Translations under genes and position numbers: made by a program | Shown: positions 13,443 through 52,894 of the stretch, piece by piece | Layout: every line of letters starts with the position of its first letter | Numbering within the stretch: position 1 is the stretch's first letter | Source: an uncultured Gammaproteobacteria bacterium | GTDB taxonomy: Bacteria > Cyanobacteriota > Vampirovibrionia > Gastranaerophilales > CAZEDP01 | Direction of reading: 5' to 3' | NCBI GenBank assembly: GCA_964643065.1 | Contig: CAZXPD010000005.1 | Location: forward strand, 8-64,007 | DNA length: 64,000 nucleotides | Notes under the pieces: model-generated | The model's database searches: none | What the model was told of the DNA's origin: nothing | What the model saw: the letters and a program-made list of their open reading frames with translations, nothing else

Positions 13443-13556
13443 GCAGTATAATGATTGTTTTTTCACTATTTTAAACATAATTTAACCGGTTTTTTGGATA
13501 AAAGTTTTATTTCAGTTAAAATCTAGTTGATACAATTAAAAATCAACAGGTTTATT

Positions 13557-15272
13557 ATGAAGTTTTTGAAAAAAGAAAATTTGCTTTTCTTGATACTTAT
13601 CGCATTATGCGGCTTATTCTTTTTTTTAATGCTCGGTTCTTATCGTCTTATTGATGTGGACGAACCGAGATATGCCGAAGCAGCAAGAGAGATGTTATCA
13701 TCGGGAAATTGGATAACTCCGTATTTTAATTACGAACTAAGATTTGACAAGCCGGTTTTCTTTTACTGGCTAATAGCCTTATCATACATTGTTTTTGGTG
13801 TAACGGAATTTGCGGCAAGATTTCCTTCGGCATTGCTTGCAACTTTAACCGTTTTATTCACATATTTTTACGGCAAAACTGTTATTTCTAAAACCTTCGG
13901 ATTTATTTCATCCGTAGTTCTTATTACTATGCTTGAGTTTATTGCTCTTTCCAGAATGTCAATAACAGATATGACGCTATCTTCCTTTATCTGTGCAACA
14001 ATATTTTCGGGTATTTTAGGGGATTATTTTGCAAGAAAACAGCCGGACAGCCGCAAAGGTTTTATTTTATGGCTGTGCGCATATATATTCAGTGCGTTTG
14101 CGGTACTTACCAAAGGTCCGGTCGGATTTGTTCTTCCGGCATTAATATTCGGAATCTATTTCCTGCTGAAAGGAAGATTAAAAGAAAACTTAAAACCTGT
14201 TTACGTACTGCCTGGCATAGTTATTTTTTCCGTTATTGCAATCCCTTGGTATTATTTGATGATTAAAATACACGGGAACAGTTTTATTGACTATTTCTTC
14301 TTAAAACATAACTTGAAGAGATTTGCTTCGAGCGGATTTCATCAGCACAGACAGCCGTTTTATTTTTACTTGCCGGTAGTTCTTGTAGGAGTTTTTCCTT
14401 GGACTGCTTATTTTGTTGCTTCATTGATTAAGTATGCAAAAACCGTAATTAAATATGTTAAAGAAACAGCCCTCAAAACAACCGGAAAAATTAACATCGC
14501 AATCTTCAAAGACTCAGACGAAAAGATCGATGTCATTTTATTAAATTTAATCTGGTTTTTGATTGTTTTAGTTTTCTTTAGTTCTTCATTGGCAAAATTG
14601 GTAACTTATATTCTGCCGTTATTTCCTCCTTGCGCGCTTATAACAGGTTTGTATCTTTATGAATTTTTTACCGAAAACAAGAACAAACGAGGCATGATAA
14701 TTTCGTCGGCAGTATTTTTATTAATTTGCTTAGGGCTTTCATTAGTACTTATTTTTTCTTTTAATTCAATTCTTCCGCGAGACGAAAAACTTGTTTTCTC
14801 AATATCAAATTACTTACCGGCAGCAATATTATTGTTAACGTCAGTTTTATCGTTTTTATTTTTATTGAAGGGGAAAAAATTCTATGCCTTTGGTGTTAAT
14901 GTTGTTTTGATGTTTTTAATTTCCGTAATTGCGGTTACAACGGTATTACCTGCCGTTTATAATTCAGGACAGAAAGATTTGATAGAGTTTATAGGTATTT
15001 ATAAAAATTCCGGAATAAAGAACAGCGAGCTTTACACCTTTTCTCTTGTTAAACCCAGTATCGTATTTTACTCAAGAGAAAGAATTCCGTGGATAAAGAA
15101 TAGAAACTATTCAGGTCTTTCAGAAACAATATCGAAAGAAACCCCTGTATTTCTAATAATAAAAAACAAAGATATCGTAAATATTCCGAAAAACATTAAA
15201 TATAATTTAGTCAAAAAAGGCGTGCGATACAGCTTTATTTCAAACAGAAAAATACAAACGAAGGAAGAATAA
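13557..15272 (+). CDS. ArnT/PMT-like polyprenyl-phospho-sugar glycosyltransferase (GT-C fold)
   Basis: DVDEPRYAEAAREM, FDKPVFFYW, ARFPSA, LTKGPVG, many TM helices. ATG at 13557 preferred over TTG at 13527. Confidence 0.9.
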   Translation: MKFLKKENLLFLILIALCGLFFFLMLGSYRLIDVDEPRYAEAAREMLSSGNWITPYFNYELRFDKPVFFYWLIALSYIVFGVTEFAARFPSALLATLTVLFTYFYGKTVISKTFGFISSVVLITMLEFIALSRMSITDMTLSSFICATIFSGILGDYFARKQPDSRKGFILWLCAYIFSAFAVLTKGPVGFVLPALIFGIYFLLKGRLKENLKPVYVLPGIVIFSVIAIPWYYLMIKIHGNSFIDYFFLKHNLKRFASSGFHQHRQPFYFYLPVVLVGVFPWTAYFVASLIKYAKTVIKYVKETALKTTGKINIAIFKDSDEKIDVILLNLIWFLIVLVFFSSSLAKLVTYILPLFPPCALITGLYLYEFFTENKNKRGMIISSAVFLLICLGLSLVLIFSFNSILPRDEKLVFSISNYLPAAILLLTSVLSFLFLLKGKKFYAFGVNVVLMFLISVIAVTTVLPAVYNSGQKDLIEFIGIYKNSGIKNSELYTFSLVKPSIVFYSRERIPWIKNRNYSGLSETISKETPVFLIIKNKDIVNIPKNIKYNLVKKGVRYSFISNRKIQTKEE

Positions 15273-16268
15273 ATGAACGAATTATTAATGGAAAAAGACC
15301 GGTGTAACACTTGTTATAAACCTGAAATATCAATAATAATTCCCGTATTTAACGAGTCCGAAAACGTTGAGCTTCTCGCTGAAAAAATTACCGGAGCTTT
15401 TGAAAAATTAAACAAAACTTACGAAATAATTTTTATTGATGACGGTTCATCTGATGATACTCCCAAAATTTTAGAACGGCTCTCAACAGCTAATCCTAAA
15501 ATAAAAGCGGTTATTTTCCGGCGTAATTTTGGGCAAACAGCAGGTTTATCAGCCGGGTTTGATTATGCGAAAGGCAATACGATAATTACAATGGACGGAG
15601 ATATGCAAAATGACCCCGATGATATTTCGCGTTTATTGGAAAAACTGGACGAGGGTTATGATGTTGTCAGCGGATGGAGAAAAGATAGAAAAGACAAACT
15701 TTTCAGCCGTAAAATCCCTTCAATGATAGCTAATAAAATAATTAGCAAACTTACCGGCGTTTATTTACATGATTACGGCTGTGCGCTTAAAGCCTATAAA
15801 GCCGAAATTGCCAAGGAAATACCTCTTTATGGCGAATTACACAGATTTATACCGGCTCTTGCCAGTATAGAAGGAGCTAAAATCATTGAGATACCGGTGA
15901 ATCATTATGCAAGAAAATTCGGCAAAAGTAAGTACAACATTCTCAGAACATTTAAGGTAGTTCTTGATCTTATTACCGTTGTATTTTTAAGAAAGTTTAT
16001 AACGCGTCCGCTTCATATGTTTGGCAGACCGGGACTTTTTTCTCTTGCAGCAGGCATATTAATATGCGCTTATTTAGCGTTTGAAAAAATATTTTATCAT
16101 ATGGAAATAGGTAACAGACCGCTGCTTTTGCTCGGTGCACTGCTTATAATAACAGGCATTCAATTCATAAACAGCGGTATTATTGCAGAAATTCAAATTA
16201 GAACGTATTATGAATCACAGAATAAAAACATATACAAAGTAAGAAAAACATACGGACTTAAGGATTAG
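15273..16268 (+). CDS. GT2 undecaprenyl-phosphate glycosyltransferase (ArnC-like)
   Basis: IIIPVFNE, FIDDGSSD, RNFGQTAG, MDGDMQNDP, HDYGCALKAY, two C-terminal TMs. Confidence 0.92.
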   Translation: MNELLMEKDRCNTCYKPEISIIIPVFNESENVELLAEKITGAFEKLNKTYEIIFIDDGSSDDTPKILERLSTANPKIKAVIFRRNFGQTAGLSAGFDYAKGNTIITMDGDMQNDPDDISRLLEKLDEGYDVVSGWRKDRKDKLFSRKIPSMIANKIISKLTGVYLHDYGCALKAYKAEIAKEIPLYGELHRFIPALASIEGAKIIEIPVNHYARKFGKSKYNILRTFKVVLDLITVVFLRKFITRPLHMFGRPGLFSLAAGILICAYLAFEKIFYHMEIGNRPLLLLGALLIITGIQFINSGIIAEIQIRTYYESQNKNIYKVRKTYGLKD

Positions 16269-16271
16269 GTT

Positions 16272-17288
16272 TTGGGCAGGAAAAAAGCATTAAAACTTCT
16301 CATAAGAATTACAATAAGCGTCATTTTTATTTCGCTGCTGCTTCATAATGCGGATGCCGTACAAACCATAAAGTCTTTGCTCAAAACAGACATAAGAGTG
16401 TGGGTTTCGGGGATTTTTCTGTATATATTGGGACAATTCATCAGTGCATACAAATGGAAGCTCCTTGCAAATGCGGCAGGTTATCAAAAAAAATTCAAAG
16501 ATTATATGAATTTTTATTTTATGGGCATGTTCTTTAATCTTTTTTTACCGACAACGGTTGGAGGAGATGTAGTTAAAGGCTATTATCTTTCTAAAGGCGA
16601 TGTTGAAGGAAGAAAAGCCCCTGCTATTTACTCAATTTTGGCTGACAGATTTACCGGTGTTGCAGTTATAGTCTGGATAGCAACGATAGCATCTTTATCT
16701 CAGGCTGGAAACCCTGTACCCTTAATTTTCAAGATTTTTTTGGTCTCTCTTTCCCTTGGCATAATTATTTTAACTCCGGCCTTTCCGCTTATTCTTCACA
16801 AATATTTCAAAAGAAAGAAACTTGCAAGAAGTATCCTTAAAGATACAAAAACCTATTGGACAAACCCTAAATTAATGGCAACAATTTTTATGTGGTCATT
16901 AATTTTCCATATAACAGTTGTTATAATTCACGTTATTATTGGGCATGCTCTTAAATTAAATATACCTTTCGGATACTATTTTATCGTTTATCCTATTTCT
17001 GCCATTGCAGGATTTATTCCGTTTACTTTCAACGGAATAGGACCGAGAGAAGCTGCTTATGTTTTATTTTTACATTTTATAGGAATAACCAAAGCGGAGG
17101 CGGTTGCTTTCGGATTATTATGGCTGGGAATTGTTATCTGCTCAAGTTTATTCGGCGGAATATTTTATATCAAAGGCAAGCATGTGCCTCCTCCCGAAGA
17201 GCTTGAAGAAGAAGAGGAAGAATTCAATCTTTTACAAAAAGCATATGAAGATGATGATGAAACAACTGAAGCTCCAGATAATGTTTAA
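16272..17288 (+). CDS. lysylphosphatidylglycerol-synthase TM region / flippase-like protein (UPF0104)
   Basis: FFNLFLPTTVGGDVVK, SILADRFTG, PFTFNGIGPRE. Acidic C-terminal tail. Confidence 0.85.
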   Translation: MGRKKALKLLIRITISVIFISLLLHNADAVQTIKSLLKTDIRVWVSGIFLYILGQFISAYKWKLLANAAGYQKKFKDYMNFYFMGMFFNLFLPTTVGGDVVKGYYLSKGDVEGRKAPAIYSILADRFTGVAVIVWIATIASLSQAGNPVPLIFKIFLVSLSLGIIILTPAFPLILHKYFKRKKLARSILKDTKTYWTNPKLMATIFMWSLIFHITVVIIHVIIGHALKLNIPFGYYFIVYPISAIAGFIPFTFNGIGPREAAYVLFLHFIGITKAEAVAFGLLWLGIVICSSLFGGIFYIKGKHVPPPEELEEEEEEFNLLQKAYEDDDETTEAPDNV

Positions 17289-44916: not shown

Positions 44917-45900
44917 TTAATCAGCTCTTACAACTTTAAATCTTCTGCCGAGAGAAGGCAAAGTTATCACCCGCATAATTTTAATATAAATATTGCGCCT
45001 GATTTTGCCCCAAAATACCGATAAGCCGGTTGCAGCACCTTCTTTAACGGCTTTTTCGATGAATTCATATTCACTCATTGTCTGTTTATTTACCGTACAC
45101 CAATAATACTCGTTTATTAGCCATTTATAGCTTCTTGCAGTGAAAACTCTGCCGTTTTTCGTAAAAATACTGTCTCCCAAAATTTTGTGAAATGTTTTAT
45201 TCAAAGCAATAATTTGTTCTATAAAAGGACCCGACGTATTATCGCTGCTGTCCTGCCCTTCGTGAATTCCGCATTTTATGTATTTGTCTTTCATTACAAT
45301 AGAAGGACCAAAATATGCGGCATCCATCAAAAACGGTTTGTCCGCAATCTTACCGTAAATTGAGCATTTTGTTTTAATTTTTTTGAAAACTTCAGTTCTA
45401 TATATCGTTGAACAGTAGTCAAAACCTTTTCCGCAGTATAAATAAGCGGCAAAATCTTCAAGATTTTTACAGTAGCTTCCCGCTGCTCTGACTTTTTGCC
45501 AATTTTCATTAGAAGGCGGCTGTTCCTTAGCATTAAGTGTAGCGGCTATAAGTGAAATATCAGGGTATTTATTTATTAGTTTCAATGCATTTTCTATATA
45601 CTTCGGGTGCATCAAATCATCGTCATGAAAGACCATTGCCCATTTTTTTGAAGCCAGTTCCTGTGCTCTGTTGAAGTTACCTTCATGTCCGAGATTTTCA
45701 CTGCTTGGAATAAATTCAACCCCGTATTTTTCAAACTCCTTAACAATTTGTGTCGTATTATCAGTGCTTGCGTTATCAAGCACCGCAATTCTAAAGCCTT
45801 TTGCAGTCTGATTTACTATGCTGATTAAGGTTTCCTTTAGCAATTCAGCCCTGTTGTATGTGGTAACAAATATTTCAATATCTTCAGGCTTGTATTTCAT
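44917..45900 (-). CDS. GT2 family glycosyltransferase
   Basis: FVTTYNRA, VLDNASTD, NLGHEGNF, VFHDDD. Confidence 0.9.
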   Translation of the reverse strand: MKYKPEDIEIFVTTYNRAELLKETLISIVNQTAKGFRIAVLDNASTDNTTQIVKEFEKYGVEFIPSSENLGHEGNFNRAQELASKKWAMVFHDDDLMHPKYIENALKLINKYPDISLIAATLNAKEQPPSNENWQKVRAAGSYCKNLEDFAAYLYCGKGFDYCSTIYRTEVFKKIKTKCSIYGKIADKPFLMDAAYFGPSIVMKDKYIKCGIHEGQDSSDNTSGPFIEQIIALNKTFHKILGDSIFTKNGRVFTARSYKWLINEYYWCTVNKQTMSEYEFIEKAVKEGAATGLSVFWGKIRRNIYIKIMRVITLPSLGRRFKVVRAD

Positions 45901-47011
45901 TTAATTCTCTCCGTGCAATATCTTCAACACGCTTTGCAAATCCCTGAAAACTGTGCAGTTTCCCATTATTGCTGTTTAAAAAATCTCTTCCCGCCGAAAT
46001 TATTTTTAATGACTCATCTTCAGATAACGACTGCAAAAATTTATTTAATTCGCTGAAATTTTTAAAATCTCGCATGTCGATAAAAGTTTCTTCAGGTATA
46101 AATTTTTCTATATCTTCTGCACCCAAGTATATCGGAATAGTGCCCGCACAGAAACAGTCAATTATTTTTTCTGTAAAATACCCGGGATATGACGTGTTTT
46201 CAAAGCATATCGCAAATTTATAATCCGACATTGTTTTGATTTTGTCTTCACAAGTCTGAGGGTTAAGTTCTTTCAGAATTCCTCTAAGCCTGAAATGCCA
46301 TATTAAAGGGAGTCTGTTGAGTTTACCCCACCCTTCTCCGAATATATCAAGACTTTTGCGTTTTGCGAAATACTCAATTGCTTGGAGCCGTTTTGTCTGA
46401 AATTGGTTTTTGAGAGCATCAGAGAAACTTTTTGACGTTAACTGCATTAATCTTTTGAGGTATTTGTCTTTTTTAAATCCCAGATAAAAAACTCTTCTTT
46501 TTACGAATTTGTTTGAAGCTACAAGAACCGCAAATTTTCTTTCATTCCAGGGTTTTACGAGGTTGATGATATCGCCCTGCTCAAAATTAGGAAAGCGCAT
46601 TATATAATTAGTGCCGGTTTTCAATTTTGCATTATCAAAAGAGCCCGCAAACAAAAGGCGGTTAGGATAAATTTCTGCCAGTTCGGGAATTTTGTCATAA
46701 AAACGCCACGCATAAAGAGGCGATTCAAAGCATGTCAGAAGCAAAGCCTTTGCGCCTGCTTTTAATAGCTCATCGGAATGTAAGTTTTCGAGTTCCTGAA
46801 TAACATAAACATCTTCAGGTTTATATCTGCCGTCTTTAACTCCCTCAAGAGCCAAATCGCCGGTCATAACCTCAATGTTTTCTTTTGCCAGAGACTCTTT
46901 CAGATAATAACACCAAAGAGCCCCCGGAAAGTTTTTGGCATAGTCTTTATCAAAGATTTTGTTGCCGTTAAGCTTGTCGATATTTGTACATAGTGCGATG
47001 ATTTTTGACAA
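45884..47011 (-). CDS. GT10 (alpha-1,3-fucosyltransferase-like) glycosyltransferase
   Basis: YKFAICFENTSYPGYFTEKIIDCFCAGTIPIYLGA. GAGG SD favours TTG 47011 over 47083. Confidence 0.85.
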   Translation of the reverse strand: MSKIIALCTNIDKLNGNKIFDKDYAKNFPGALWCYYLKESLAKENIEVMTGDLALEGVKDGRYKPEDVYVIQELENLHSDELLKAGAKALLLTCFESPLYAWRFYDKIPELAEIYPNRLLFAGSFDNAKLKTGTNYIMRFPNFEQGDIINLVKPWNERKFAVLVASNKFVKRRVFYLGFKKDKYLKRLMQLTSKSFSDALKNQFQTKRLQAIEYFAKRKSLDIFGEGWGKLNRLPLIWHFRLRGILKELNPQTCEDKIKTMSDYKFAICFENTSYPGYFTEKIIDCFCAGTIPIYLGAEDIEKFIPEETFIDMRDFKNFSELNKFLQSLSEDESLKIISAGRDFLNSNNGKLHSFQGFAKRVEDIARRELNEIQA

Positions 47012-47139
47012 TTTGCAGCCTCTTCTTAATCTGCATGAGTCAAAGATATTACAAAATAATAAAAAATGTTTAAAAATTGGCAATTTTTAAACGCCTTTTG
47101 TTTTTATAATTTCAGTTAAAAAATTGGCATTTAAAATAT

Positions 47140-48417
47140 ATGAATATAGCCGGTTCAAATCCTTTTAAATCTTTTAATACGCTCAAAAAACATCCTCGGC
47201 AAAATGTCGGCAATGATAAACAAATATGCCGAAACAATAAAGATTCTTTTGAAAGAGTCAGCTTTAAAAATTTTCCGGTAGGAGCTGAGGGTTTTCTCTC
47301 AGCAAGCGTGTTAAAGGGTACCGGAAGAATTAACCCTGCTGATGTTGCCAGATTAAGCGAACTTATCGGGGAGGAAATGTCAGGTCTGATACAGAGAGCT
47401 ATTCAAAGTAATATTCCTTTAGACCCAACTCAACTTGAAATGATAAGCTCAATAGCTAATTTGAAGAAAGTGCTTGAAGAGCTCCAGTCAAAAGTGCCCT
47501 GCGGAGAGTATAGAGTTGAAAAAGACAAGCTTATTGTAACCTATTTTAAACCTGATTCCGCTACAAATAAGATAGTGCCTAAGACAACAGAAATTTGTAT
47601 CCAAAATCCCAGAGCAAAGAAACCGGTTAAAGTATTCGGACCAAACACCGATGCTCTGCAGTTTAAGGAACAGGCGTTTTCAGTCAAGCCTTATGTTACG
47701 GTAGGACCTGTGGGATGGACAAAACTAAAACCGGCTATTGTTGAAGCAAACGGATTTGATTTGTCATACTGGGGAGATGAAAAAGCGAAGGTAACGGCAT
47801 TGGCAAAAGCTTATGCAAAAGGCACCATGAAGTTGTTTACACCTGTTTATGATTATTTGCTGAAGGCGGACTGTAAACGTGAAAGAATAGCGTTTGTTAC
47901 AAGTGCCACGAATGAAGGTGTTGACGAAATATTTATGACCCTTTCAAAAAAACGAAAGGTTCCTACGGCAACCATAATCCCTTATCAATATGCAAGTTAT
48001 ATGGATAAAAACCACAGATTTCCACTTCTGATAACAAATAACATCCCCCGTTACGGAGATGCATTTTCTGATATTGCCGATATAACGCTTATAACCGGCG
48101 GAAGAGATCACGTTTGGCACGTTGATTTAAAAGATCAGCTTGTTGATAACAAAAAATGGGCTATTCCGGTGGATGTCCTGAAAGAATATCTGGGAATAGA
48201 AATCCCCGCGACAAACAGTCAGGGCGATTTGGAAAATTCCGCAAGACTTCTTTTGGATAGAGGATTTACTCCACCGTACAATCTTGATAAATTGTTTGGT
48301 GAACTTCCGGAAAATGAACTTAAATCAAAATTGACAACGGATTCCCAAAAGCTCTTAGCTGTTCAGATGTACAAAAAATACATTGCCGGTGAAAGAGCGG
48401 CCAGGATTGTTGCCTGA
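47140..48417 (+). CDS. hypothetical protein with leader (..DSFERVSFKN) and possible SLOG-like C-terminal domain
   Basis: TVGPVG...VTSATNEGVD...TIIP...ADITLITGG...WAIPVD echoes SLOG/LOG motifs. Family call tentative. Confidence 0.6.
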   Translation: MNIAGSNPFKSFNTLKKHPRQNVGNDKQICRNNKDSFERVSFKNFPVGAEGFLSASVLKGTGRINPADVARLSELIGEEMSGLIQRAIQSNIPLDPTQLEMISSIANLKKVLEELQSKVPCGEYRVEKDKLIVTYFKPDSATNKIVPKTTEICIQNPRAKKPVKVFGPNTDALQFKEQAFSVKPYVTVGPVGWTKLKPAIVEANGFDLSYWGDEKAKVTALAKAYAKGTMKLFTPVYDYLLKADCKRERIAFVTSATNEGVDEIFMTLSKKRKVPTATIIPYQYASYMDKNHRFPLLITNNIPRYGDAFSDIADITLITGGRDHVWHVDLKDQLVDNKKWAIPVDVLKEYLGIEIPATNSQGDLENSARLLLDRGFTPPYNLDKLFGELPENELKSKLTTDSQKLLAVQMYKKYIAGERAARIVA

Positions 48418-48439
48418 TGTAAATTAAATCAGCACAAGC

Positions 48440-50230
48440 CTAAATGTTGCAAATATTTCCTTTAAACTCTTCCCTGCTTAAAAAAGGAAACATGTCTTCA
48501 AGGGGCTTTGAGATGATTTTCCCGTCGGGAAGCTTCTCTGACGACAATTTCGGGCTGAAAGTATAATCGGTCTCAAGCATTACTTCGCAGACAACAGGTC
48601 CTTTTGTTGTCAGTACTTTTTCGATGTTTTCTTTCAGGTTTTTACTGCTTTCGATTTTTATTGAAGGCAAGTCGAAAGCCTTGGCAACCTTGACAAAATC
48701 AGGAATGCTGACGCCTGATTCTTTGCCCGAAGCAACGTATCTGCCTTCAAAAAACGCATCCTGAGTTTGTTTTATGGAAATATAACCCTCGTTATTTAAA
48801 ATGAAAAGTTTGATAGGAAGCTTGTAATGACGAACTGTTTGAAGCTCCTGAAGGTTCATCATAAGACTTCCGTCACCCGCAATGCAGACAACGTCTTTTT
48901 CTTGGTTTGCAAAACAGGCTCCTATTGCGGCAGGCAAATCATATCCCATAGACGCGCAGCCCGAGTTCCAAAAAATCCTCTGCCCCTTTTTAACCTTTCC
49001 GGCCTGAAAAAGACAGACACATGCCGTTCCGTTGCCCGCAACGGCAACATCTTTTTCTTTCATGCAGGAGGTTAAAACCTCGATAAAGTAATAAGGATTT
49101 ATCAGTCCTTCTTTTTTTCTGTATTCGGGAAGGACAACAGGGTATCGTTTTTTTCTTTCAATGCACCACTCAAGCCACGAATTGTATGAGGATAATTTGT
49201 CTTTTTTGAGGAGGGCTTTTAGCTCGTATAAAAAATCTTTTACATCAGCATTTATGGCGATATCGGGCTTTACGGTTGGCTTTTTAAGCTCGGCTTCGTC
49301 AATATCAACAATTATTTTTTTACCTTTTCTGACAAAGAACTCACTGTTGTAGCTGACCTGCCTTATGTTATTTCGTGTACCCACAAACAAAACAACATCA
49401 GCGTTTTGTAGAGCAAAATTCCCGGCTCTGTCTCCTACGGTTCCAATTCTGCCGACAAATAACGGACTATCGGATTCTATTAAATCAAACCCGTTAAAAG
49501 TTGAAACAACAGGAATTTGAAGTTTTTGAATCAGCTCTAAAAATAACTCTTGAGCTTTTCCGAGCCTTACGCCATGCCCTGCAACAATTAGAGGTCTTTT
49601 GGCATCTTTGAGCAGTTTATATGTTTCCCGAACTTTTTCTTTCAGGGAACTCTTATTATTCTCTTTATCAGGTTTAAACCCTTCAAGACTTTCTTCATCA
49701 ACAAAAGCCCCCTGAATATCTATCGGAACGTCAATCCAGACCGGACCGTGTCTCTTGTCGGTCATCAAAAAAAGAGCCTTATCCATTATGAATTTTATAT
49801 CTTCAGGCTTTTCAACAGTTACGGCATACTTTGTGAGAGGTTTTATAACAGTCGTTATATCGACTTCCTGATCGCCGAGCTGTCTTAATCCGATGTCGGG
49901 ATTAAATTTAACACAGGTTTGCCTTTTTACCTGTCCTGAAATGTATATCACAGGAACGCAATCCGTCCATTGTCCCATTAAACCCGTTAAGGTGTTTAAT
50001 CCTCCCGGACCCGTGGTTACTATAACAGCGGCGGGCTTGCCCGAAACTCTTGAATATCCCTCGGCGGCTATTGAGGAAGCCTGCTCATGATGGTTGCAAA
50101 TGTACTTAATGTCTTTACATTTGCCGACGGAGTCGTTTAAATGCATTGCCCCGCCGCCGGAAATCATAAAAACATGCTCAAACCCCTCTTTTACCAGTCT
50201 TTTTATAATATAGTCAGATACTTTTATCAT
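48440..50230 (-). CDS. ThDP-dependent acetolactate-synthase-like enzyme (polysaccharide-locus type)
   Basis: GGGAMHLND, HHEQA, TTGPGGLN, GDGSLMMNLQEL...LNNEGY. Confidence 0.9.
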   Translation of the reverse strand: MIKVSDYIIKRLVKEGFEHVFMISGGGAMHLNDSVGKCKDIKYICNHHEQASSIAAEGYSRVSGKPAAVIVTTGPGGLNTLTGLMGQWTDCVPVIYISGQVKRQTCVKFNPDIGLRQLGDQEVDITTVIKPLTKYAVTVEKPEDIKFIMDKALFLMTDKRHGPVWIDVPIDIQGAFVDEESLEGFKPDKENNKSSLKEKVRETYKLLKDAKRPLIVAGHGVRLGKAQELFLELIQKLQIPVVSTFNGFDLIESDSPLFVGRIGTVGDRAGNFALQNADVVLFVGTRNNIRQVSYNSEFFVRKGKKIIVDIDEAELKKPTVKPDIAINADVKDFLYELKALLKKDKLSSYNSWLEWCIERKKRYPVVLPEYRKKEGLINPYYFIEVLTSCMKEKDVAVAGNGTACVCLFQAGKVKKGQRIFWNSGCASMGYDLPAAIGACFANQEKDVVCIAGDGSLMMNLQELQTVRHYKLPIKLFILNNEGYISIKQTQDAFFEGRYVASGKESGVSIPDFVKVAKAFDLPSIKIESSKNLKENIEKVLTTKGPVVCEVMLETDYTFSPKLSSEKLPDGKIISKPLEDMFPFLSREEFKGNICNI

Positions 50231-50243
50231 AATAACTGCCTTT

Positions 50244-51263
50244 TTAATTTAGTATTTCGTCAAATTTTTCTTCAGGTACATTATCGATATTATCAGTTTT
50301 CGGCAAAACATCGGGCATTGTACAGTATTTACAGGACGGATTTTCGTGTCTTCTTCTTTGAAGATGCATAAGCCTCATCTCCCTTAGTTTTTCACCTTGC
50401 CAAATTTCAGACAGGCTTTGTTCTTTGAGGTTACCGACTATTGTGGCATTGTTCCAGTCAACGCAGCATAAGACAACATCTCCGCCGGACTTAACCGCAA
50501 GCGTAAAAAACGGATACGGACAGACTTCTTTTTTGTCTATCACTGCAAAATTCCAATCATCGCAATTGTTTTCAAAAGAGTTTTTTGTAATTTTGTTCCC
50601 TTCATAACCGTTCCAGTTCGTAAGAGGTTCAACCGCAATTTCATCGGCAATATCCTTATAAGTATTTAGAAAAGCCTCTGTTTCAATGTTATTAAGAGAA
50701 TCTATTGTTTTTATGTACAAAAACGGCTCTTTTTTATTTAATTCATTGCGTATTTTTTTAAAATTTACGATGTTATTATAAATATCTTTCACATCAAAAT
50801 CAGTTCCGGTTATTTGGGAATTCATTCTCTGATTGACTGAATAAATAGATATGCGTAAATGAGTTAAACCTGAGTAAATCAGCTTTTTAGACATTTCTTC
50901 CGTTAAAAGGACGGCGTTAGTATAGATTTCAATTCTATCTGCAATATTTGACTGCGAAGCCAGCTCAATCATTTCGGGTAAATTCCTGTTCAATAAAGGT
51001 TCTCCCTCATCAAACAGACGCAAACACTTTAGTTTTCCCATTGATTTTATGTCGCTTACAATTTTTTTATATAAATCCATATCCATGTTGCCTTTATATC
51101 CGGCAAACTGTTCATATTGGGAAAATGATTGGACACAGTGATAACATTTAAAATTGCATAAATTTGTCGGTTCGATATTTATACTTAGCGGCATTTTTAA
51201 CGGAAGAATGTCGCTAAGCGGACTTCTGTAATCTGCCCTGTTTTCATAATAAACCTGTTTCAC
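50244..51263 (-). CDS. radical SAM protein with SPASM/twitch domain
   Basis: CNFKCYHC (CxxxCxxC), GEPLL, CPYPF...GDVVLCC...CKYC. Confidence 0.92.
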   Translation of the reverse strand: MKQVYYENRADYRSPLSDILPLKMPLSINIEPTNLCNFKCYHCVQSFSQYEQFAGYKGNMDMDLYKKIVSDIKSMGKLKCLRLFDEGEPLLNRNLPEMIELASQSNIADRIEIYTNAVLLTEEMSKKLIYSGLTHLRISIYSVNQRMNSQITGTDFDVKDIYNNIVNFKKIRNELNKKEPFLYIKTIDSLNNIETEAFLNTYKDIADEIAVEPLTNWNGYEGNKITKNSFENNCDDWNFAVIDKKEVCPYPFFTLAVKSGGDVVLCCVDWNNATIVGNLKEQSLSEIWQGEKLREMRLMHLQRRRHENPSCKYCTMPDVLPKTDNIDNVPEEKFDEILN

Positions 51264-51286
51264 CCTAAATCTTCTTTCCTTCTTTT

Positions 51287-52063
51287 CTATTTTTGAGAAA
51301 AATATTTAAGTATTTCTTTTAAATCTTTGAAAACTAAAAAATTATCGTCAGATTTTTCTTTGTATAAATTATCACGGGAAATTAAAAAAGAGGCGCATCC
51401 AAACTTTTTAGCCATTTCTATATCACTGGAATAGCTGTCGCCGATAACCAATATTTCTTTATTTTTTAAGCCTGTATCATTTGATAATAATTCAATCATC
51501 AAAGTATTCGGCTTACCTGCTATATAATCGGCTTTTTTGCCGCCGGCGGCTTCAAGCGCGGCAACCAGAGCGCCGCAGCCGGGCAGTGTTTTGCAATCTC
51601 TGCCGGGATAATTAACGTCATAGTTGCAGGCAATGATTTCAGCTCCGTTTAAAACAACTGACGCGGCTTTAGAAAGCTTTTCATAATTGAAATTCAAATC
51701 CAGACCTACTACAACAGCCTCAGCTTGTTCTTCTTCGGTTATATTAATTCCCTGAGAAGATATTTCTTCCCTTAAACCCTTTTCTCCGAGAACAAAAACA
51801 TTTTTATAACCGTTTTGCTTCAGATAAAGCGAAACGGTAAAAGCCGATGTGTATAATTCTTTTACAGAGAGCTCAAAACCAACCGATAAAAGTTTATCGA
51901 CAACTCCCTGCCGTGTTTTGCTGGAGTTATTGGTCAAATAAAAAACTTTTAAGTTCTTTTTTTTAAAAAAATCTGTTAATTCAATTGCTCCGTCTATCGG
52001 AGTGCTTCCGTAGCATAGTGTTCCGTCAATGTCCAGAGCAACCGCTTTTATATCATTAATCAT
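51287..52063 (-). CDS. HAD-IIA (NagD-like) phosphatase
   Basis: DIDGT, LTNNSSK, GKPN, IGDSYSSDI. Confidence 0.92.
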   Translation of the reverse strand: MINDIKAVALDIDGTLCYGSTPIDGAIELTDFFKKKNLKVFYLTNNSSKTRQGVVDKLLSVGFELSVKELYTSAFTVSLYLKQNGYKNVFVLGEKGLREEISSQGINITEEEQAEAVVVGLDLNFNYEKLSKAASVVLNGAEIIACNYDVNYPGRDCKTLPGCGALVAALEAAGGKKADYIAGKPNTLMIELLSNDTGLKNKEILVIGDSYSSDIEMAKKFGCASFLISRDNLYKEKSDDNFLVFKDLKEILKYFSQK

Positions 52064-52078
52064 AGCTGTTCTCTAAAA

Positions 52079-52894
52079 TTAAACGCAAACTCCGCCCGCT
52101 TCGGCAATCAATTTTTCATACCTTGCTTCCAGATACTGGATTCTGTATTGGTCTTCCATGTGTATCATTCCGTAGAAATTACGTTTATTTTTCAGCCACA
52201 TGAGCTCAAAACCGACTGCTTTCAGAATTCCTTTATCAGGATCTTTTTTAAGAGCTTGCGGGCATTTAAATATTACTTTTCTGGTTTCGTAACGGTCAGT
52301 GAGACCTTCCGGCAGTTTGTTTATAAACCTGACCGTTTCTGCGGAAACCCCGCCTCCGATTGCACACTCCAGAGATTTTTCTTTTGCTTTTTGAAATATA
52401 ACATTTGTTATATCAAAGATTTCATCACAGTTAATGTCTTCTCTTGTTAATCCCATTGACTGCGTCATATCAACTCTTCCCAACACTATACCGTCGAGAT
52501 ATTTAACTTCTTCAATTGAAAGAATTTCGTCAAGGTTTTTAAAAGCTGTTATAGTTTCAATATTGACGAGGAAATCAACCGTATCGTATTCTTCTTCGGT
52601 AAAAACCAGTTTTGTTGCAGAAATAAATTTTTTCAAAGCATAAGCTGTTTCTATCATCGGGGCAACAATTCTTGAAACGCCTATAACTCTTGCTTCATAC
52701 ATATCTTTAATTGCTTCACATCCGCCTATTTTAATGGTTAAATCTAAATCGGCTCTCGAAACGACTTCTTTAAGCCTAAGAGCTTCTTCCAGTCTGGTTC
52801 CTTCAGCTTCAAATTCTGCTTTAACCCCTATAACTTCATGATTTTCCTTTAAGTCAATAAGCGTATCGACCATTCTTTGTTCGAGATTATTCAC
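52079..52894 (-). CDS. HpcH/HpaI aldolase / citrate lyase-family protein
   Basis: GVKAEFEAEG, IKIGGCEA, VAPMIET, VNIET, LGRVDM. Confidence 0.8.
   Translation of the reverse strand: MNNLEQRMVDTLIDLKENHEVIGVKAEFEAEGTRLEEALRLKEVVSRADLDLTIKIGGCEAIKDMYEARVIGVSRIVAPMIETAYALKKFISATKLVFTEEEYDTVDFLVNIETITAFKNLDEILSIEEVKYLDGIVLGRVDMTQSMGLTREDINCDEIFDITNVIFQKAKEKSLECAIGGGVSAETVRFINKLPEGLTDRYETRKVIFKCPQALKKDPDKGILKAVGFELMWLKNKRNFYGMIHMEDQYRIQYLEARYEKLIAEAGGVCV

Follow-up and report, generated by a model that had tools for sequence, protein, structure and literature searches.

The way in which hosts perceive the envelopes of mycobacteria and plant pathogens is shaped by acyl-branched deoxysugars, caryophyllose being one example. 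To our knowledge, just a handful of these sugars, and of the pathways that make them, are known. Here we examine a candidate pathway of this type, centered on a compact operon coding for an aldolase-fold protein, a phosphatase, a radical SAM enzyme and a thiamine diphosphate (ThDP)-dependent enzyme. The operon lies within a 64,000-nucleotide stretch of DNA, hereafter the window, which covers positions 8-64,007 of contig CAZXPD010000005.1 (GCA_964643065.1; contig C5 of genome G000 in our numbering) and comes from an uncultured gut Melainabacterium of the order Gastranaerophilales (GTDB CAZEDP01).

In the synthesis of yersiniose A, encoded by ddhABCD-yerE-yerF in Yersinia pseudotuberculosis O:VI, the ThDP enzyme YerE uses pyruvate to place a two-carbon branch at C4 of a CDP-4-keto-3,6-dideoxyhexose, and ketoreduction follows; no aldolase, phosphatase or radical SAM partner takes part. 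A "unifying scheme" was put forward in which the ThDP-dependent ErwE, MMAR_2332 and MyGE use aldolase-made gamma-hydroxy-2-oxo acids as donors to ketone acceptors, with CDP-4-keto-3,6-dideoxyglucose as the proposed physiological acceptor (PMC9306805). The scheme covers erwiniose (ErwE/F/I/J), caryophyllose (MMAR_2331 aldolase, MMAR_2332 ThDP enzyme and MMAR_2333 glycosyltransferase, GT) and gastriose (MyGE/MygI/MygF) (PMC9306805). Caryophyllose needs MMAR_2331, a gene of the aldolase/citrate-lyase family (PMC9306805, PMC5706390).

The Melainabacterial locus resembles yersiniose A synthesis in its predicted ThDP-dependent C4 branching of a CDP-4-keto-3,6-dideoxyhexose followed by ketoreduction. 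With erwiniose, caryophyllose and gastriose it shares a YerE-like ThDP enzyme combined with a putative pyruvate aldolase, the genes ddhA, ddhB and rfbH for the acceptor, a reductase of the short-chain dehydrogenase/reductase (SDR) type and a GT; moreover, MMAR_2331 and the window aldolase both belong to the HpcH/citrate-lyase superfamily. Unlike in these pathways, the side-chain genes are found here apart from the ddh genes and the host is a Melainabacterium. We consider that the four-gene operon is probably the side-chain half of an acyl-branched 3,6-dideoxyhexose pathway of the yersiniose/erwiniose/caryophyllose type. A preliminary description of the locus had proposed that YerE-like branching, an HpcH aldolase and a radical step build a novel branched or higher-carbon sugar. 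The enzymatic part of this proposal is supported by the match of the ThDP enzyme to a YerE-like structure, by the occurrence of the aldolase/ThDP gene pair within ddh clusters and by core sugar genes on another contig of the genome, all detailed below. The scheme itself is not novel, as the pathway type is widespread and was published in 2022 (PMC9306805); what the published schemes lack is the HAD-IIA phosphatase and the BtrN-like radical SAM enzyme that the window copy adds within its operon. The genes of the stretch are the following:

52079-52894, minus strand: HpcH/HpaI-like class II aldolase-fold protein, 271 aa (PF03328 HpcH_HpaI, 45.6 bits)
51287-52063, minus strand: HAD-IIA phosphatase, 258 aa (Hydrolase_6, 86.8 bits)
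50244-51263, minus strand: BtrN-like radical SAM enzyme, 339 aa (Radical_SAM, 56.7 bits; SPASM, 59.5 bits)
48440-50230, minus strand: YerE-like ThDP-dependent carboligase, 596 aa (TPP_enzyme_N, M and C, 110, 122 and 141 bits)
47140-48417, plus strand: intervening 425-aa gene, no family
45884-47083, minus strand: GT10-family glycosyltransferase (PF00852 Glyco_transf_10, 72.4 bits)
44917-45900, minus strand: soluble GT2 glycosyltransferase, 327 aa (PF00535 Glycos_transf_2, 90.8 bits)

All Pfam domain calls listed exceed the gathering thresholds (25 bits for PF03328) and agree with the tight minus-strand operon that had been described, in which the genes are separated, from aldolase to ThDP enzyme, by gaps of 15, 23 and 13 bp. 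The single inserted gene reported ahead of the GT10 and GT2 genes is likewise there: it is the 425-aa open reading frame (ORF) on the opposite strand, convergent with the ThDP gene. A promoter scan gave 29 matches compared to 27.7 in shuffled sequences and was of no use for fixing the operon limits. The seven genes and a downstream FlhA-C paralogue reappear in unchanged order, with 81-97% protein identity, in another genome of the genus (locus L001), so that the arrangement is conserved and no chance juxtaposition.

Enzymes of the operon

A PDB sequence search placed the ThDP enzyme clearly closest to 8rph (JanthE, 421 bits), the next match being an acetohydroxyacid synthase (AHAS) at 256 bits, and the ThDP motif GDGS...NNEGY was seen when the window enzyme was aligned to 8rph. 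JanthE was termed a YerE-like aldehyde-ketone carboligase and takes pyruvate among other donors (PMC12188165). The possibility that the window enzyme is a true AHAS serving branched-chain amino acid synthesis, already raised in the preliminary description, draws on its full-length matches to AHAS models. Yet it reaches just 380 bits on the AHAS model TIGR00118, below the cut-off of 538, while a housekeeping AHAS scoring 768 bits on the same model is encoded elsewhere in the genome (G000:C29:16829-18517). Phylogenetic analysis revealed that the window enzyme is nested in a clade of HpcH-associated ThDP enzymes, with the AHAS of its own genome as a distant, long-branch outgroup, and neither an AHAS small-subunit gene nor an ilvC gene is found next to the window ThDP gene. 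A role as AHAS is thus so improbable that we set it aside. These comparisons establish, at the level of sequence, a YerE-like enzyme distinct from the AHAS of the genome, and we predict that it adds an acyl anion to a ketosugar acceptor.

The HpcH-like protein does not reach any of the NCBIfam equivalogs HpaI, GarL and RhmA (22-26 bits for cut-offs of 368-441). Homologues are numerous (n=5903), and the best 120 of them are 66-97% identical to the window protein, nearly all 271 aa long and drawn from many phyla; across Bacillota, Bacteroidota, Elusimicrobiota, Rickettsiales, Nitrospirota, Actinomycetota and others, identity is 62-73%. The protein belongs to a separate and tightly conserved subfamily. 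Its AlphaFold model (pLDDT 92.8) finds HpaI, HpcH and YfaU as top folds among PDB entries with Foldseek, with a probability of 1.0 and TM scores of 0.52-0.57, consistent with the TIM barrel of these aldolases. The ligands of the divalent metal, E113 within IET and D142 within GRVD, match VES and aDL in HpaI/YfaU and are invariant in the family, and a profile alignment shows that the PMxE motif is kept. The region of the catalytic Arg (R70 in HpaI, R74 in YfaU) is poorly aligned, and the offset from PMxE puts this position at the invariant K55/I56. We propose that the HpcH-like protein is the maker of a 2-keto-3-deoxy acid donor.

The phosphatase matches the HAD-SF-IIA model TIGR01460 (132 bits, cut-off 100) and its catalytic motifs DIDGT, TNNS, GKP and GDSxxxD are all intact. 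In the radical SAM enzyme, the C36x3C40x2C43 motif together with C248, C266, C311 and C314 is invariant in 38 homologues. Its C-terminal part contains five Cys residues (248, 266, 267, 311 and 314) and does not display the full seven-Cys SPASM motif, which fits a single auxiliary cluster as in BtrN, whereas a full SPASM domain would hold two. BtrN is also the best match in the PDB by sequence, followed by DesII, both at just 16-21% identity, and the same order was obtained by fold (model pLDDT 88; BtrN TMt 0.73-0.80, then DesII). These closest solved structures, a 2-deoxy-scyllo-inosamine dehydrogenase (BtrN) and a TDP-4-amino-4,6-dideoxyglucose deaminase/dehydrogenase (DesII), each have as their target a carbinol carbon in a sugar or cyclitol. 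BtrN and the window enzyme share the CX3CX2C motif and the single four-Cys auxiliary site; the window protein differs in being longer, with a disordered insert at residues 218-241.

Related cassettes and the sugar-nucleotide genes of the host

To place the operon in context, we surveyed 80 loci centered on HpcH-like genes and 80 loci centered on radical SAM homologues (individual loci carry L numbers), neighbors being typed by NCBIfam and GtrA by Pfam. A ThDP gene whose product is 42-63% identical to that of the window adjoins the HpcH-like gene in 69 of the 80 HpcH-centered loci, in many phyla. The doubt, voiced earlier, as to whether the genes co-occur elsewhere is therefore lifted, the more so since all four functions are also found together in L132 and L143. 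These two Elusimicrobia loci are the only ones outside the genus to hold all four, encoded on a single strand in the order ThDP, HpcH-like, HAD-IA, one further gene, radical SAM and SDR.

Genes for CDP-3,6-dideoxyhexose synthesis (ddh) are found beside the HpcH-like/ThDP pair in most of the 80 loci. Shared neighbors of the pair include a glucose-1-phosphate cytidylyltransferase, the E1 3-dehydrase RfbH (718 bits), an E3-like flavin reductase, extended SDRs (CDP-glucose 4,6-dehydratase among them), a FabG-type reductase, HAD phosphatases, a polyprenyl-phosphate GT2, GtrA and the AroB-related "sugar phosphate phospholyase" family TIGR04425. The cassette comes in two forms. About 40 of the 80 loci bear SDR, ThDP, HpcH-like, FabG and AroB-like genes, and about 22 bear SDR, ThDP, HpcH-like and HAD genes, the latter of type IA in 14 and IIA in 8. 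According to the gene maps, in which exceptions were not formally counted, the FabG and AroB-like pair and the HAD gene alternate after the aldolase. The AroB-like/FabG form thus has the same core as the window (SDR, ThDP at 42-63% and HpcH-like at 62-71% identity) and the same ddh neighbors; it diverges after the aldolase, with a dehydroquinate-synthase-like phospholyase and a FabG-type reductase where the window has a phosphatase and a radical SAM enzyme. Other Gastranaerophilales (L170, L183 and L187) carry RfbH, SDR, HpcH-like, HAD-IA and ThDP genes. Among cultured bacteria, Gabonibacter massiliensis GM7 (L138) bears the phosphatase form and Effusibacillus consociatus (L121) the AroB-like form.

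The radical SAM-centered loci also hold cytidylyltransferase, 4,6-dehydratase and DegT/RfbH genes, often accompanied by a short-chain reductase, HAD, GT2 and GtrA. A YerE-like ThDP gene lies within 10 kb of the radical SAM homologue (30-45% identity) in 51 of these 80 loci, and a scan of metagenome contigs revealed the same association. There, the neighbor of the ThDP gene is either NeuB-like (30 loci) or an HMGL-like aldolase, the family to which ErwI and BphI belong. Three unrelated types of 2-keto-3-deoxy-acid-forming enzyme (HpcH-like, HMGL-like and NeuB-like) thus adjoin YerE-like genes in different lineages.

Several of these loci display additional features. L012-L090 often contain radical SAM paralogues in tandem (two or three), along with B12-radical SAM enzymes and C-methyltransferases. 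In Lachnospiraceae and Selenomonas (L081, L057, L069, L075 and L077), an HMGL-like aldolase is encoded together with a dehydroquinate-synthase-like protein, an FGGY kinase, ThDP enzyme, SDR, a glyoxalase-fold protein and a radical SAM enzyme. Judging by the kinase, the aldehyde or acid would be deliberately phosphorylated in these cassettes, ahead of phosphate elimination. The idea that the radical SAM enzyme is a plain stand-in for the AroB-like enzyme was rejected, as both co-occur in Selenomonas and Lachnospiraceae loci. The cultured marine Prochlorococcus sp. MIT 9314 (L086, NZ_CP138950.1) carries a ThDP gene, a NeuB-like gene and two tandem radical SAM homologues, and could serve as a tractable organism for the radical SAM family.

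As previously described, the window is devoid of any nucleotidyltransferase or 4,6-dehydratase gene; whole-genome scans with PF00483 and PF16363 gave no match on C5. Such genes were found on contig C18 of the same genome (L113), in a row coding for a glucose-1-phosphate cytidylyltransferase (TIGR02623, 426 bits, cut-off 300), a CDP-glucose 4,6-dehydratase (TIGR02622, 484 bits, cut-off 278), a 188-aa ORF, RfbH (678 bits, cut-off 423) and a 293-aa SDR. This SDR is 58-62% identical to the SDR encoded directly upstream of the ThDP gene in cassettes. With ddh genes and a cassette-type SDR on C18, the cassette is complete in this genome, split between C18 and the window. Judged from these family assignments, the enzyme set of the acyl-branched 3,6-dideoxyhexose scheme is present across the window (aldolase, ThDP enzyme and GTs) and C18 (ddhA, ddhB, rfbH and SDR), the E3 reductase (ddhD) apart. 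The 188-aa ORF (L113:10306-10872; G000:C18:13305-13871), which lies between the 4,6-dehydratase and RfbH genes, belongs to no family, and none of the 80 cassettes holds a homologue of it; it occupies a slot where an E3-type partner might be expected.

We also followed the HpcH-like and RfbH genes through 41 genomes of the order. The tight HpcH-like family (at least 65% identity) occurs in six of them, five of which also encode RfbH, the sixth genome being 73% complete; in three (G010, G018 and G022), RfbH adjoins the HpcH-like gene.

Glycosyltransferases and neighboring genes

The GT10 enzyme contains the FxxxFENSxxxxYxTEK-type motif as FAICFENTSYPGYFTEK. It is 399 aa long here and 373 aa in L001, and the annotated TTG start may lie too far upstream. 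The GT2 enzyme has a DDD motif and no transmembrane segment; its gene overlaps that of GT10 by 17 bp, to which it is apparently translationally coupled. GT10-like genes adjoin the cassette in L121, L140, L142 and L186, and in the last of these, from Bacteroidales, a gene of the same GT2 family stands next to GT10 straight after the cassette.

The preliminary description had assigned transfer of the sugar to the GT10/GT2 pair. The like ending of the L186 cassette speaks for this assignment, while the share of GT10 in it is less certain: since the genome encodes Gmd and Fcl (GDP-fucose genes, on C14), GT10 may simply be an ordinary fucosyltransferase. Gmd, Fcl and an NTP-transferase were found twice with identical scores, on C14 and C71, which probably means that the GDP-fucose locus was either duplicated in the assembly or copied recently in the genome. 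A genome scan did not detect GtrA, and the polyprenyl-phosphate GT2 of the cassettes has just a weak relative here. Consequently, direct transfer of the sugar by the adjacent soluble GTs is plausible.

Elsewhere in the window, at 13527-17288 on the plus strand, three consecutive genes code for a GT-C of the PMT type (581 aa), a 331-aa GT2 with 28% identity to the polyprenyl-phosphate GT2 of the cassettes, and a membrane protein of the LPG_synthase_TM family (338 aa). Situated 30 kb from the sugar operon, this trio resembles a module for glycosylation by way of a lipid carrier.

The product of the intervening 425-aa gene has no Pfam or NCBIfam match, and its Atlas leads are SLOG-like and weak (score at most 0.86). 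Among about 180 related loci, a homologue was found at L001/L114 only; as the gene is missing from all other cassettes, it was rejected as a member of the pathway. A link to a flagellin glycan by way of the adjacent FlhA-C paralogue is also unsupported, this gene being near no other HpcH-centered locus. The contig bearing L001/L114 (CAZEDP010000041.1) is tagged "uncultured Gammaproteobacteria", yet it is fully syntenic with, and 81-97% identical to, the Melainabacterial locus, and the label of this metagenome-assembled genome is probably wrong.

Proposed pathway and alternative readings

In the pathway we propose, DdhA, DdhB and RfbH from C18 would supply CDP-4-keto-3,6-dideoxy-D-glucose. The HpcH-like protein, acting as a metal-dependent aldolase, would condense pyruvate with a phosphorylated aldehyde to yield a phospho-2-keto-3-deoxy acid. 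For the aldehyde, erythrose 4-phosphate is the best candidate, given that the sister variant has a dehydroquinate-synthase-like enzyme at the same point: with this substrate, known dehydroquinate-synthase chemistry predicts that the AroB-like and FabG enzymes would turn the 3-deoxy-D-arabino-heptulosonate 7-phosphate-like product into 3,7-dideoxyheptulosonate, which is the caryophyllose donor proposed by Steitz et al. 2022 (PMC9306805). In the window pathway, the HAD-IIA enzyme would instead strip the phosphate and leave a chain ending in CH2OH, as opposed to the CH3 expected from the AroB-like/FabG variant. The ThDP enzyme would then decarboxylate the keto acid and add the resulting acyl carbanion at C4 of the CDP-keto sugar, creating a tertiary alcohol, and the C18 SDR would reduce the new side-chain ketone in the manner of YerF. 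The least certain step is that of the BtrN-like enzyme, which would, without O2, abstract hydrogen at a carbinol carbon located either in the sugar or in its side chain, leading to a ketone or to diol dehydration. Finally, the adjacent soluble GT2, and perhaps GT10, would attach the sugar to a surface glycan.

Several observations weigh against this scheme. No E3 (DdhD) reductase was identified in this genome. The ddh genes lie on a separate contig, and genomes of the order often encode RfbH with or without the operon (21 of 41 genomes), so that the link between the two halves rests on cassette orthology and not on adjacency. Where HpaI and YfaU have their canonical catalytic Arg, the HpcH-like protein seems to have another residue, roughly Lys55. 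Together with a similarity in the predicted fold of just TM ~0.55, this apparent replacement means that its chemistry could differ from that of a plain pyruvate aldolase. We know of no assayed member of this exact HpcH-like family, nor of this radical SAM family. A high-GC back-translated pattern scan for HpcH-like kin of MMAR_2331 and of the Rhodopseudomonas palustris aldolase gave 31 matches, none from Mycobacterium or Rhodopseudomonas, a result that says nothing either way on orthology with MMAR_2331. Finally, we infer in what order the aldolase, phosphatase and ThDP enzyme act, which aldehyde is used, what the product is and which glycan receives it.

Some of these same points lend weight to a scheme in which the ThDP enzyme uses plain pyruvate, as YerE itself does (PMC9306805), and produces a yersiniose-type sugar with an acetyl branch. 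The HpcH-like protein, the phosphatase and the radical SAM enzyme would then act at a later stage on this branch, or else have a substrate of their own. Pyruvate is among the donors of JanthE, the closest relative with a solved structure (PMC12188165), the canonical catalytic Arg position seems to be missing from the HpcH-like protein, and the present data do not fix the order of the steps. ErwE, on the other hand, refuses pyruvate and needs the aldolase product (PMC9306805), and the three unrelated keto-acid-forming types encoded next to YerE-like genes fit the supply of a donor better than three separate post-branching chemistries. Altogether we regard use of plain pyruvate as unlikely. The radical SAM gene could also be a passenger, or belong to some other pathway, in which case the functional unit would consist of aldolase, phosphatase and ThDP enzyme only, as in the ordinary phosphatase variant. 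Homologues of this gene are indeed near just 3 of the 80 HpcH-centered loci, and among 41 relatives its orthologues are confined to the genus. Nevertheless, the gene is internal to the operon, 23 and 13 bp away from its two neighbors, and is 82% identical in the sister genome; members of its family accompany a YerE-like ThDP gene in 51 of 80 loci and likewise on metagenome contigs; and its nearest solved folds, BtrN and DesII, modify sugars or cyclitols. A passenger gene is, in our view, a rather improbable explanation.

That the operon makes a free small molecule unrelated to glycans, be it an acyloin, a cyclitol or a keto acid, would agree with the lack of any sugar-nucleotide gene in the window and with the small phospho-acids on which HAD-IIA enzymes often act. 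It is harder to reconcile with the clusters of ddh and GT genes that surround the HpcH-like/ThDP pair in most of the 80 loci, with the GT10 and GT2 genes that follow directly here and in L186, or with the location of the cassette-type SDR next to the ddh genes on C18, and we give it little credence. A phosphonate pathway (phosphoenolpyruvate mutase with phosphonopyruvate decarboxylase) was also considered and rejected, as the ThDP enzyme is a three-domain, YerE-like protein and the barrel is without phosphoenolpyruvate-mutase character.

Within the acyl-branched 3,6-dideoxyhexose pathway that we favor, a more speculative role for the BtrN-like enzyme can be envisaged. It may oxidize or deoxygenate the long side chain independently of O2, or else give the sugar a second keto group to serve as acceptor. 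The surface of gut Melainabacteria would in that case carry an undescribed branched sugar of 12 or 13 carbons, which GT10 could attach using a CDP-activated donor rather than GDP-fucose. We put this forward as a tentative possibility, conceivable but doubtful.

As this locus illustrates, uncultured bacteria of the gut and the environment commonly follow one logic, in which a keto-acid synthase serves a YerE-like enzyme working on a CDP-keto sugar. Its parts are interchangeable: the donor can be provided by HpcH-like, HMGL-like or NeuB-like enzymes, and the phosphate can be dealt with by a phosphatase or by a dehydroquinate-synthase-like enzyme. The radical SAM partner represents a family with a clear biochemical context, which could extend anaerobic sugar chemistry and offer biocatalysts for tertiary alcohols.

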